A stretch of DNA of 32,000 nucleotides from Candidatus Heimdallarchaeota archaeon (GTDB lineage: Archaea; Asgardarchaeota; Heimdallarchaeia; Heimdallarchaeales; Kariarchaeaceae): NCBI GenBank assembly GCA_030149205.1, contig JASBSB010000003.1, forward strand, positions 300,001-332,000. Direction: 5' to 3'. Every line of letters starts with the position of its first letter. Position 1 is the first letter of the stretch. The position numbers and the translations under genes were made by a program. Below, one piece after another: positions 2-13,962 of the stretch. The notes beneath the pieces were generated by a model. It was not told the DNA's origin, ran no database searches, and saw nothing but the letters and a program-made list of their open reading frames with translations.

Positions 2-1105
2 CCCTCTTTCTTTCATTGCAAGAACATAGGGTTTTGCTTTTCCTGCTGCGCTTGTAAACTCTATGGCAAGTAACAAACCTCTTCCTCTTACCTCCTTCAC
101 AACTTGTGAAGGCAGAGTCTTTAATTTATCTAAGAAGTATTTACCATTTTCTTGAGATTTTTGAGCTAAGTTTTCTTCAACTAGCACATCAATTGCTGCG
201 CTCCCTACAGCACATGCCAATGGGTTTCCACCAAATGTAGACCCATGTGACCCACTGCTTAACACAGACATCACCTCTTTAGACCCTAAAGTTGCAGAGA
301 TAGGCATGATTCCACCTCCTAAAGCCTTTCCAACCAGCAAAATATCTGGTTGTACATCATCATACATAAAGCAGAAAGGTTTTCCAGTCCTACAGAAACC
401 TGTTTGAATTTCATCTGCAATGAGGAGGATATTATTTTCCTGACAAACTTCATACACATTTTTTAAATAACCCTGAGGAGGGGTGATTACCCCCGCTTCT
501 CCTTGTATAGGTTCAACCAAAAATGCAACTGTGTTTGGTGTAATAGCTGCTTTTAACGCATCAACGTCACCAAAAGGGATTTTTACAAAGCCAGGTGTTG
601 CAGGACCAAAATCACCGTAAGTGTCTGGATCTGAGGAGAACCCAACAATGGTGGTTGTACGTCCATGAAAATTGTTTTCACAAACTATGATCTCAGCCTT
701 ATCCTTTGGAACTTTCTTCTTCCAATATCCCCACCTTCTTGCCACCTTGATTCCGGTTTCAACTGCTTCAGCACCAGTATTCATGGGGCAAGCCATTTCA
801 TATCCGGAGTACTCGCATAACTTTTGAAGAAATCCACCTAACTTGTCATTATAAAAAGCTCTTGAAGTAAGTGTAATCCTATTAAGTTGGTTCTCAGCTG
901 CTTTTATTATGTTTGGATGGAGATGCCCCTGGTTTACTGCAGAATACGCTGATAAGCAATCAATGTATTTCTTGCCATCAACATCCCATACATAGATTCC
1001 TTCACCTTTAGATAATACAACAGGAATTGGAGTATAATTTGGGCTAGCCCATGTATTCTCCAATTTGATAAATTCTTGTGTTTTGGATTCATTTAATTGA
1101 GCCAT
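2..1105 (-). CDS. rocD: Ornithine--oxo-acid aminotransferase (class III PLP-dependent), 3' end runs off the window
   Basis: Not in the ORF track; translated by hand from ATG at 1105: MAQLNESKTQEFIKLENTWASPNYTPIPVVLSKGEGIYVWDVDGKKYIDCLSAYSAVNQGH, MNTGAEAVETGIK, NFHGRT, ADEIQTGFCRTG, GKALGGG (PLP lysine), HGSTFGGNPLACAV. Open to the window edge. Confidence 0.9.
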   Translation of the reverse strand, partial: MAQLNESKTQEFIKLENTWASPNYTPIPVVLSKGEGIYVWDVDGKKYIDCLSAYSAVNQGHLHPNIIKAAENQLNRITLTSRAFYNDKLGGFLQKLCEYSGYEMACPMNTGAEAVETGIKVARRWGYWKKKVPKDKAEIIVCENNFHGRTTTIVGFSSDPDTYGDFGPATPGFVKIPFGDVDALKAAITPNTVAFLVEPIQGEAGVITPPQGYLKNVYEVCQENNILLIADEIQTGFCRTGKPFCFMYDDVQPDILLVGKALGGGIMPISATLGSKEVMSVLSSGSHGSTFGGNPLACAVGSAAIDVLVEENLAQKSQENGKYFLDKLKTLPSQVVKEVRGRGLLLAIEFTSAAGKAKPYVLAMKERG

Positions 1106-10572: not shown

Positions 10573-11595
10573 TTAAATGAAATCATACAATGACTTAGCA
10601 TTATCTAAAGTGAATGTAACTGGATCATCAACTGGATAACACAACAACTTTGTTCGACTGTGAACTGACCCTGGAAGTCTAATTAACCTTTTAATGTCAA
10701 TTGTGACTTTGTGATCTATCCGAGGGTATCTATATTTGATGAGTGTAGGTAGAAAAGTATCATCAAAATTTATTTTCCGTGGTACAATATCTACCAGATT
10801 TGGATGAGTAATTGAAGCATATTTCTCTCTAAGTGTTTTCAATGCCTGTTTTTTAATACCCATTTCAAAAAAAACTTCATTGGGGGTTGAAAAGAGAAAA
10901 TTTTGTCCTAGCAACCTGAAAATTCGACTTTTAAGTTGCTCTGCTGAATTTTTCAAACTTTCAACACGTTGTTCTCCTAATGGATCGTGAATTAATAACA
11001 TGTAATTAATCAAGGCGGTTCTCTGTTCCGTATCCATAATGAATGCATCGGGGTCAAGAATCCAACAATGATAGCCACGACCACCAGAAAACAACCAATG
11101 AATGTTTTTGAACCCAAAATCATCCTTGAGTGTCTCATCTATAATCGCTGCTGCATCTTGCAACAATGGCCAACAGGCAGGGCAAACTGATTTCTTGCCC
11201 TTGCATTCGCAGTCTCTCACTGGGTCATATTCATTTCCATCTAAATCAAAAATTAATTCCCTACCAACCCAGTTTGTCTGATGGATTGAAAGCCCCGGAC
11301 GATTTAAAACCTTAGTATGAACAGGTTCATCGTATTCTGCACCGATGTAAGCCCCTGTTACTGTAAAGCTTGATAAGTACTCAACCAAATAATTTGGTTG
11401 TTCAAAAGACCTGTTCCTAGTGAACCCTTTGTCCTCAATTTCAAATCCAAACTCTCTAAATTTAAATTTATTAGAGTCAATTAACTTTAGAAGAAGGTTG
11501 ATATCAAAACTTTTGGAATAGTACCGCTTTAAATCATCACTGAAATTTCCCTTCCTCGATGATTCTTCCAGTCCACCTTCTTCATCCCTTTTCAA
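10573..11595 (-). CDS. priS: DNA primase catalytic subunit PriS
   Basis: RELIFDLD (DxD), CECKGKKSVCPACW zinc site, FSGGRGYH, IDHKVTIDIKRLIRLPGSVH. TTG start is uncertain. Confidence 0.96.
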   Translation of the reverse strand: MKRDEEGGLEESSRKGNFSDDLKRYYSKSFDINLLLKLIDSNKFKFREFGFEIEDKGFTRNRSFEQPNYLVEYLSSFTVTGAYIGAEYDEPVHTKVLNRPGLSIHQTNWVGRELIFDLDGNEYDPVRDCECKGKKSVCPACWPLLQDAAAIIDETLKDDFGFKNIHWLFSGGRGYHCWILDPDAFIMDTEQRTALINYMLLIHDPLGEQRVESLKNSAEQLKSRIFRLLGQNFLFSTPNEVFFEMGIKKQALKTLREKYASITHPNLVDIVPRKINFDDTFLPTLIKYRYPRIDHKVTIDIKRLIRLPGSVHSRTKLLCYPVDDPVTFTLDNAKSLYDFI

Positions 11596-12512: not shown

Positions 12513-12603
12513 TCAAATAGCTTCTTAATTAACTTTCTTAAACAAATGAGAATCATCGATGTCTAAGCCATAACCTTATTTATTTTATAGCAACTACTAC
12601 CAT

Positions 12604-13962
12604 ATGGGAGAAAGATTGATTTCTCCATCGTGGTACATTTTTCGACAGGTTGAATTAAACAAAGTAAATGTAGATGATGAAGGGTACCGCTTAATAGTTG
12701 CAAGAATAAACTTTCTTTCATTTTCTCAATCAAAATTAGGATCAAATCAAAACTCTTTCACTGAAAGATTAATTGAGGAAGATACATTTAATGAACAACT
12801 CAAAGGTCACCTTTTGCTAAGGATCACAGCTTCAGTTGATTTAAGATTGAAATCATGGTTAATAGAAACTGAGGGAGACTACTTTATTGAAAAGCTCAAG
12901 GCATCTGATTTTGAAGAACAAAAAGCTGTACTTTACGATCTTTACCCTAAGAATTCTCTCCTTCTCTTCGACGAAATCCAAGAAATGATCCCCGAAATTA
13001 TAGATAAGTTTGGTCTTCAAGATAGTTTTGACAGTTACCTTCGTTATAAATTAAAAAGAAGCATAAAACGTATTAACCCTAAAGAGATAATTCTAGCAAT
13101 CAAATTCTCTGAAGCTCCTTATTTGCTCTCCAACCGCAAAGGTGATATGTACAAAGGGTGGGTGCTCATAAATTTAGAGAGAGCAATGTCTTCAATTAAG
13201 AAAAGATTTGAAAGAAAACTTAGAGAAAAAATTGATCAATTATCAGCCAGAGTAGAGAAGGACAGACATCTGAAAAATATTGCAATTCAATACTATGAAT
13301 TTATTCAACAAGATATTTTCGATAAACTCATCAAACCAACACGTGAATCTTTCAATATTAGTGGCATTGAGCTAGAAGGTGAAATAGAGGATAATTTAGA
13401 TAAGTTTCCTCCTTGTATTTCTGACTTAATGATGAGGGTGAATCAAACAGGGTACTTAGGACATTCTGAGAGATTCCAACTTGGATTGTTCTTAAAACAC
13501 GCAGGAATGCCAGTCGATGAACAACTCCAATTTTGGTATTCAAAGGCAGTAGATAACCTGGGGATTTCTTTTGAAGAGTTTAATAAAAAAGCAGGATACA
13601 TTATCAGACATATTTATGGCCTCGAAGGTGGGCATATAGATTACCAGATGCCCTCTTGTAAAACAATTCAAGATAAGATGTATTGTAGGTTTAGACATGC
13701 CTCAATTGAAACCAATCAAGAATTGTTGGAGGCAGCATACAAAAAGAAATTTGGAGACCAGCTCCCCGAGAAAATATTACAGTTCATGAACAAAATTATG
13801 CAACAAACAATTGACGGTTATTATTCAACCGCCTGTTCAATGTACCTTAGTGGTTTGATAAATTTTCAGAGAATAAGAATCAACCACCCCTTAATCTACT
13901 TAAAGGTATTCACAGACTTTGAAAAGAAAAATGAAACTACAGAGAGTAAATCAGAAAACTGA
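12604..13962 (+). CDS. priL: DNA primase large subunit PriL, eukaryote-like (p58/Pri2 type)
   Basis: FPPC271, HSERFQLGLFLK, YIIRHIYGLEG, PSC352, YC361RFRH, AC411, NHP motif; N-terminal HLLLR...W..E.D. Confidence 0.93.
   Translation: MGERLISPSWYIFRQVELNKVNVDDEGYRLIVARINFLSFSQSKLGSNQNSFTERLIEEDTFNEQLKGHLLLRITASVDLRLKSWLIETEGDYFIEKLKASDFEEQKAVLYDLYPKNSLLLFDEIQEMIPEIIDKFGLQDSFDSYLRYKLKRSIKRINPKEIILAIKFSEAPYLLSNRKGDMYKGWVLINLERAMSSIKKRFERKLREKIDQLSARVEKDRHLKNIAIQYYEFIQQDIFDKLIKPTRESFNISGIELEGEIEDNLDKFPPCISDLMMRVNQTGYLGHSERFQLGLFLKHAGMPVDEQLQFWYSKAVDNLGISFEEFNKKAGYIIRHIYGLEGGHIDYQMPSCKTIQDKMYCRFRHASIETNQELLEAAYKKKFGDQLPEKILQFMNKIMQQTIDGYYSTACSMYLSGLINFQRIRINHPLIYLKVFTDFEKKNETTESKSEN

Follow-up and report, generated by a model that had tools for sequence, protein, structure and literature searches.

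Can an archaeon carry a DNA primase large subunit built like that of eukaryotes, and if so, is such a gene something new? The question is raised by priL, an open reading frame (ORF) for 452 amino acids (aa) in a 32,000-nucleotide (nt) stretch of DNA, hereafter the window, which covers positions 300,001 to 332,000 of contig JASBSB010000003.1 from a Candidatus (Ca.) Heimdallarchaeota archaeon. A first-pass annotation made from the letters alone had read the product, PriL, as a large subunit of the eukaryotic p58/Pri2 (PRIM2) type rather than a canonical archaeal PriL, had placed it close to the ancestor of the corresponding subunit of DNA polymerase alpha (Pol alpha)-primase, and had suspected that the class might already be known. 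Our results indicate that the window gene very probably encodes the single, chromosomal and orthologous PriL of a Heimdallarchaeia archaeon, and is a member of the eukaryote-like 'Heimdall group' known from the literature. The suspicion about novelty was well founded, as two papers of 2025 (PMC12770985, PMC12680538) describe the same C-terminal elaboration. Given that the window gene comes from the same order as the example of one of them (Feng et al., PMC12680538), the eukaryote-like PriL of Heimdall type is a correct finding but one that has already been described.

Cysteine layout of the window PriL

Translation of priL gave exactly four cysteines, at residues 271, 352, 361 and 411, all encoded by TGT codons. 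C411 is located within YSTACSMY (starting at residue 407), 50 positions beyond C361, and is followed by NHP at residues 427-429. Along with this NHP, the eukaryote-like blocks quoted by the first-pass annotation are all present in the translation (HLLLR at 69, FSEAP at 168 and CRFRH at 361-365). The family profile PF04104 (DNA_primase_lrg) matched PriL over profile positions 4-265 of 266 with an E-value of 5.7e-42 and 144.3 bits (cut-off 22.4). Four NCBIfam equivalog models of archaeal PriL (PRK02249) gave 36-64 bits, below their cut-offs of 339-479, and these matches ended at residues 361-387, short of the distal C-terminal domain.

We then aligned 110 PriL and PRIM2 sequences, comprising 32 eukaryote-type, 30 Asgard long, 18 Asgard short and 30 non-Asgard archaeal rows. 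The columns of C271, C352 and C361 (designated C1, C2 and C3) are invariant for Cys, and that of C411 (C4) is Cys in 109 rows, including all 32 of the eukaryote type. Since the four columns are near-invariant in the 110 rows, the Cys match reflects homology rather than chance, and the alignment together with the ORF translation confirmed the positions proposed for the four cluster ligands. The assignment of C411 as a predicted ligand is based on its alignment with the eukaryotic fourth ligand and on structural superposition.

The spacing of these landmarks, together with the (H/N)P motif (HP) that ends the iron-sulphur (Fe-S) domain, separates two PriL types. In the window PriL, 80 residues lie between C1 and C2, 8 between C2 and C3, 49 between C3 and C4, and 17 between C4 and HP. 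The corresponding medians are 80, 8, 45 and 18 for the Asgard long forms and 78, 16, 39 and 20 for the eukaryote-type sequences, compared with 72, 8, 7 and 5 for the Asgard short forms and 72, 8, 5 and 5 for the non-Asgard archaea. C3-C4 lengths range over 40-50 in the Asgard long forms and 38-46 in the eukaryote-type rows, but only over 5-11 in the Asgard short forms and 3-9 in the non-Asgard archaea. The 49 residues of the window PriL thus stand against 3-11 in 48 canonical sequences, in agreement with the earlier claim of a eukaryotic p58C layout as opposed to tightly spaced archaeal terminal cysteines. Three of the four length features of the window PriL are therefore eukaryotic. By contrast, the C2-C3 spacing is archaeal, being 8-9 residues in all 30 Asgard long forms versus 12-17 in the eukaryote-type rows, most of which, among those printed, carry a PG.GD.HG-type loop before C3 in this segment.

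A PF04104 scan of 121 Asgard genomes revealed a bimodal PriL population. The long ORFs (about 415-500 aa) match the whole profile and, counted as position differences, follow the layout C1-81-C2-9-C3-42..51-C4, whereas the short ORFs (about 345-410 aa) match only to around profile position 206 and follow C1-72-C2-9-C3-6..12-C4. The window PriL scored 114 bits or more with all full-length long forms but no higher than 40 bits with any short form, the latter being less than the 55-70 bits that it reached with eukaryotic PRIM2 chains in PDB. In 15 Asgard families, all genomes searched contained the long form, in most cases as the only match and usually as part of a priL-priS pair. For the non-Asgard sample, genomes were reached via named genomes found by an archaeal 16S motif scan, and covered Thermococcales-like genomes, Hadarchaeota, Archaeoglobales, Methanosarcina, Haloferax, Thermoplasmatota, Bathyarchaeia, Nitrososphaeria, Desulfurococcaceae and Micrarchaeia; the Hadarchaeota were sampled through a genome labelled 'Thermococci archaeon' that sits with Hadesarchaea, and the Thermococcales-like genomes through a Methanofastidiosum-centred search. 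Every readable non-Asgard PriL shows tight terminal cysteines, with (N/H)P within a few residues of C4 in all but two, and the Saccharolobus (S.) solfataricus PriL chain 5of3_B shows the tight terminal Cys pattern, too.

Several variants were encountered in these surveys. The PriL proteins of a Methanofastidiosum sp. (L173:1456-2952, minus strand) and an uncultured Thermococci genome (L174:1456-2958, minus strand) are about 500 aa long and have canonical tight C2, C3 and C4 positions, with an insert of about 60 residues after C4 and before NP that bears a sub-threshold likeness to the winged-helix family HTH_9 (E 0.026); it looks like an independent and different C-terminal elaboration of PriL outside Asgard. 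An Archaeoglobaceae PriL (L171:805-2124, plus strand) and that of a further Archaeoglobales genome (L186) have 8-9 Cys within about 30 residues of the N-terminal third, a feature unique among the sampled PriL that may represent an extra metal-binding module. Two of the Asgard genomes had a pair of PF04104 matches: G048 (C206:176-763 and C97:18903-19451), which belongs to a short-form family and has 9% contamination, contains a short form and, at the edge of a contig, a partial ORF with a stronger score, and G050, with 11% contamination, contains two long forms on contigs C70 and C9. These doublets could be true co-occurrence, as reported for Gerdarchaeota B18_G1, or could result from bin contamination. 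A further locus (L018, G004:C40:14706-15266) has a strong long-form-like PF04104 score with an in-frame TAA and a missing C-terminal part; a pseudogene, a recoded stop codon or an error in sequencing may explain this. Finally, a long eukaryote-like PriL was found in L027/G032 and family f20 (P0296-P0302), which GTDB assigns to Asgardarchaeota and NCBI labels as Korarchaeota, Crenarchaeota or Thermoproteota archaeon; this family may be the Njord/Panguiarchaeum-type lineage of the Heimdall group of Li et al.

Phylogenetic and structural placement

A tree of the 110 sequences was built with IQ-TREE under LG+C20 with posterior mean site frequencies (PMSF). Because the columns from C3 to HP were removed before tree building, the insert was unable to drive the grouping. 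The eukaryote-type rows came from a profile search of a representative library of 1.84 billion proteins, a eukprot match used as query having given only five other proteins. The eukaryote-type and Asgard long rows were split from the Asgard short and non-Asgard rows with a Shimodaira-Hasegawa-like approximate likelihood ratio test (SH-aLRT) value of 99. Within the former side, the eukaryote-type rows form one clan (SH-aLRT 99) without any of the 30 Asgard long rows, and the latter form one clan as well (SH-aLRT 99). The window PriL was positioned beside two relatives of the same genus, followed by Kariarchaeaceae, LC_2 and Heimdall sequences.

Sequence and structure searches against PDB pointed in the same direction. 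All 22 PriL-family matches of the window PriL in the PDB sequence search are eukaryotic, with a top score of 70 bits, and no archaeal PriL appeared in it at E<=1; in a control, S. solfataricus PriL ranked first when PDB was searched with the short PriL sequence of Odinarchaeum. We next used an AlphaFold2 (AF2) model of the window PriL, built from 26 homologues and with a mean predicted local distance difference test (pLDDT) value of 79, in which the C411-bearing helix (407-419) is followed by a terminal helix (429-451). A Foldseek search of PDB with this model returned eukaryotic primase large subunits at all of ranks 1-37 (best E 1.8e-12), those consisting of p58C only (ranks 14-28) having a template-modelling score TMt of 0.71-0.78, before S. 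solfataricus PriL appeared at rank 38 (E 7e-3). In VIA-align, residues 256-441 superposed on yeast p58C (3lgb_A) with Z 18.4, a root mean square deviation (rmsd) of 2.3 A over 168 of 181 residues and 31% identity, and on human p58C (5f0q_A) with Z 18.4 and rmsd 2.7 A over 175 of 187 residues, compared with only Z 10.2 for S. solfataricus PriL. The N-terminal domain (NTD) also fitted best on its human counterpart (PriL-NTD, 4bpu_D: Z 14.8, rmsd 3.4 A, 187 residues), versus Z 12.0 for Pyrococcus (P.) horikoshii 2dla_B and Z 10.7 for S. solfataricus 1zt2_D.

The checks that the first-pass annotation had put forward, namely placement by hidden Markov model (HMM) and phylogeny and a structural overlay on both domains, thus grouped the window PriL with PRIM2 and not with canonical PriL. 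Its proposal of a primase close to the ancestor of the Pol alpha-primase subunit was supported, with one qualification: HMM, PDB, fold and tree all place the protein with PRIM2, but it is not PRIM2 itself. Because its C2-C3 spacing is archaeal and it falls within a separate Asgard clan, the window PriL is a sister or intermediate form and not a full p58C.

We considered whether the likeness to p58C could instead be convergent, with a canonical archaeal PriL having gained a C-terminal insertion on its own. Independent PriL elaborations of this kind do exist, as seen in Methanofastidiosum and its relative, but there the insert of about 60 residues follows C4, whereas in the window PriL both the position and, approximately, the length of the insert are those of eukaryotes. 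Moreover, the grouping with eukaryotes persisted without the insert columns, and an approximately unbiased (AU) test on a 52-row subset rejected a single clade made up of all Asgard PriL (delta lnL 88, p-AU 4e-5). The N-terminal domain, lying outside the insert, is also closest to human PriL, the archaeal equivalog HMMs fail, and the partner PriS is equally eukaryote-like. We thus regard convergence as very unlikely. A eukaryotic origin of the gene, by horizontal transfer into Asgard archaea or by eukaryotic contamination of the assembly, appears just as improbable. The unrooted tree leaves the direction of descent unset, and Li et al. (PMC12770985) consider early horizontal transfer possible in the history of primases. 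However, the gene is on a 473.7-kb contig amid archaeal genes such as that for aIF2-gamma, the long form recurs in all searched genomes from 15 Asgard families and is usually paired with priS, and the Asgard long and eukaryotic sequences form two separate, un-nested clans that differ in the C2-C3 spacing, which is archaeal in the former. That priL belongs to an integrated virus or mobile element, rather than being the cellular replicative gene, can hardly be entertained: nothing specific speaks for it beyond the existence of primase genes in Asgard viruses and mobile elements. By contrast, the gene is the sole PriL of a 93.5%-complete genome with orthologues conserved across the class, its neighbours are housekeeping and membrane genes without phage or integrase families, and the G+C content (about 35%) is even along the whole window.

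Some caveats nevertheless apply to the assignment to the Heimdall group. The tree resulted from a 'quick' search and is unrooted, with long stems leading to both the eukaryote and the Asgard long sequences; its 'eukaryote' rows were called by a score of 325 bits or more with the eukaryote profile plus the Cys layout and not by taxonomy, and the AU test covers the 52-row subset rather than all 110 rows. In the apo AF2 model, C352 is located in a low-pLDDT loop (339-356), and all of the biochemistry is taken from one orthologue of another order. Evidence contradicting the Heimdall-group assignment was not found in any of the analyses above, and we retain it for the window PriL.

The priL locus and its host genome

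The features of the locus are collected in Table 1. The gene for the catalytic subunit, priS, is about 1 kb upstream of priL on the opposite strand, so that the two are divergent. The encoded PriS displays LIFDLD (motif I) at residue 114, Zn-knuckle Cys at 129, 131, 138 and 141, and YIG at 83-85, which aligns to human DIG and represents the Y*G form of motif G/S. Its best PDB matches are human PRIM1 (113 bits) and yeast (94 bits), followed by Pyrococcus (about 80 bits) and S. solfataricus (43 bits). With 452 aa against 340 aa, PriL is the larger of the two subunits. The divergent arrangement of priS and priL was also observed in two genomes of the same genus (G015:C13, G036:C122), where the two genes are about 3 kb apart, while in most of the other Heimdall-group genomes sampled, with 15 or more long-form loci, priS comes directly after priL on the same strand.

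Table 1. Positions of priL, its landmarks and the adjoining features in the window
Feature	Position (nt)	Strand	Description and basis
priL	12604..13962	+	open ORF, 452 aa, stop TGA 13960-13962; primase large (regulatory) subunit of 'Heimdall group' type
PriL N-terminal domain, about residues 1-243	12604..13332	+	PriS binding predicted by homology; AF2 model and VIA-align
PriL C-terminal Fe-S domain, residues 256-441	13369..13926	+	p58C-like; VIA-align and Foldseek
C271, first predicted 4Fe-4S ligand	13414..13416	+	in PPC motif; TGT codon; Cys in 110/110 rows
C352, second predicted ligand	13657..13659	+	TGT codon; Cys in 110/110 rows
C361, third predicted ligand	13684..13686	+	in CRFRH (eukaryotes: C-P-F/Y-R); TGT codon; Cys in 110/110 rows
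C3-C4 segment, 49 residues	13687..13833	+	common to eukaryotic PRIM2, absent in canonical archaeal PriL
Three helices, from the C3-C4 segment plus the C4 helix: residues 368-383, 389-403, 407-419	to 13860 (residue 419)	+	DSSP of AF2 model
C411, fourth predicted ligand	13834..13836	+	within helix 407-419; TGT codon; alignment
H428-P429, (H/N)P motif	13885..13890	+	ends Fe-S domain in all PriL; Pro in 106/110 rows
Region upstream of priL, 91 bp	12513..12603		divergent intergenic; A/T-rich TATA-like stretch about 15-30 nt before ATG, possible promoter
Putative ORF between priS and priL, 292 aa	11634..12512	-	hydrophobic; ORF list; no Pfam match
priS	10573..11595	-	catalytic primase subunit, 340 aa, TTG start; PF01896 E 1e-32; TIGR00335 156.5 bits, above cut-off

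The host genome (3.3 Mb in 12 contigs, 93.5% complete) contains a single PF04104 match, which is the window priL; no second PriL was found by this search at that completeness. Two PolB (PF00136), one DP2 and one DP1 were identified, which is an ordinary archaeal set of polymerases. The closest named proteins are labelled Kariarchaeaceae, Heimdallarchaeota LC_2 and Hodarchaeota, and Ca. Heimdallarchaeum aukensis and Ca. Heimdallarchaeum endolithica are in the same GTDB order as the host genome, indicating that the host is a Heimdallarchaeia (Asgard) archaeon.

Relation to published Heimdall-type primases and other known systems

Asgard primases fall into two groups according to Li, Liu, Huang and Li (Mol Biol Evol 2025; PMC12770985): a Heimdall group, sister to the eukaryotic primases, and a Loki group that clusters with Thermoproteota. 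PriL of the Heimdall group has an extra C-terminal three-helix element enclosing the Fe-S cluster; in Gerd_ePriL this element consists of helices alpha18-20, with C252, C334, C343 and C388 as ligands. The Gerdarchaeales enzyme, Gerd_ePriSL, makes very short primers of under 10 nt, and ePriL restrains extension by PriS, the Heimdall-group form of which is marked by Y*G as motif G/S. The authors also report that they found no Pol alpha or B subunit in existing Asgard genomes, and they name Borrarchaeales and some Hodarchaeales as the sole exceptions to priL-priS adjacency. In an independent study, Feng et al. (Nat Ecol Evol 2025; PMC12680538) report a 'Heimdall clan' primase, exemplified by Ca. 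Heimdallarchaeum endolithica, that gained three helices, has a PriL larger than PriS as in eukaryotes and a conserved priL-priS neighbourhood, and interacts with the C-terminal domain of DP2 in yeast two-hybrid assays. The hosts of the group named in the two papers are Heimdallarchaeia, Wukongarchaeia, Njordarchaeia and Sifarchaeia (PMC12770985; PMC12680538).

By analogy with these systems, the N-terminal domain of the window PriL would pair with the PriS encoded 1 kb away, and C271, C352, C361 and C411 would ligate a 4Fe-4S cluster in the C-terminal domain, as expected from eukaryotic structures and the Gerdarchaeales enzyme. The approximately 40 extra residues between C3 and C4 are predicted to form helices over the cluster as in eukaryotic p58C, with the fourth ligand in the last of them, and the helices within residues 368-419 may shield the cluster. 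If the protein behaves like its Gerdarchaeales orthologue, the C-terminal domain would aid initiation and limit primer length before hand-off to PolB or PolD.

Two features of the window go beyond the available text of both papers, namely the C2-C3 loop of archaeal length and the divergent priL and priS genes within the genus, with the reservation that the motif figures of these papers may cover C2-C3; neither alters the conclusion on novelty. The archaeal C2-C3 length, seen in each of the 30 long forms, suggests that p58C was built up in steps. We tentatively propose, as a possible rather than a favored order, that the C3-C4 helices, the longer C4-HP linker and 8 additional residues in C1-C2 were acquired first, and that lengthening of C2-C3 followed later in the eukaryotic stem. 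If this is true, the C2-C3 loop would be a late, stem-eukaryote addition, possibly tied to docking of Pol alpha. In a wider sense, primase is a replication component whose eukaryotic form traces to one Asgard subgroup, and the Heimdall-type pair of PriL and PriS supports the view that the eukaryotic replisome has a heimdallarchaeial ancestry, a case for which phylogeny, structure prediction and biochemistry have already been published (PMC12770985, PMC12680538). The window contributes a further orthologue, that of a Kariarchaeaceae-like genus, and confirms the published class independently, but is not a discovery. Such proteins may also serve as a simpler archaeal model for the p58C functions of Fe-S cluster protection, primer counting and hand-off.

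Compared with canonical archaeal PriL (5of3/1zt2, 2dla, PRK02249 and the Asgard 'Loki group'), the window PriL shares the PF04104 family, the four Cys columns, the (H/N)P motif and the 8-residue C2-C3 spacing. However, the canonical proteins are 320-400 aa long and run from C3 through 3-11 residues to C4 and then to (N/H)P within about 5 residues, without the three-helix segment. The PriL proteins of Ca. Heimdallarchaeum endolithica and aukensis, from the same GTDB order (G026, G067), are long forms that likewise exceed their PriS in size, but they come from a different family, possess two extra Cys next to C1 and C2, and have priS directly after priL. Gerd_ePriL of Ca. Gerdarchaeota archaeon B18_G1 falls into the same tree clan as the window PriL, with the same four-Cys layout and long three-helix C3-C4 segment, and is likewise near a PriS with the Y*G motif; the Cys of its sequence in our set (L049), at 252, 334, 343 and 388, are at the published positions, and C411 of the window corresponds to C388. 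It belongs to another order, scores 177 bits to the window PriL, and has 44 C3-C4 residues instead of 49. Its priL and priS are adjacent, whereas those of the window are divergent with an ORF between them, and B18_G1 has two canonical aPriL paralogues (PMC12770985), in contrast to none in the host genome here. With regard to eukaryotic PRIM2/p58/Pri2 (4rr2, 5exr, 3lgb, 5f0q), the window PriL differs by its 8 rather than 12-17 residues between C2 and C3 and by its position outside the eukaryote clan. By contrast, the two-domain architecture and the blocks SH..LR...W.I..E.D and C.FRH are held in common, the C1-C2, C3-C4 and C4-HP spacings are near-eukaryotic, and about 170 residues of the C-terminal domain superpose on eukaryotic p58C at 2.3-2.8 A, the sequence identity being 28-32%.

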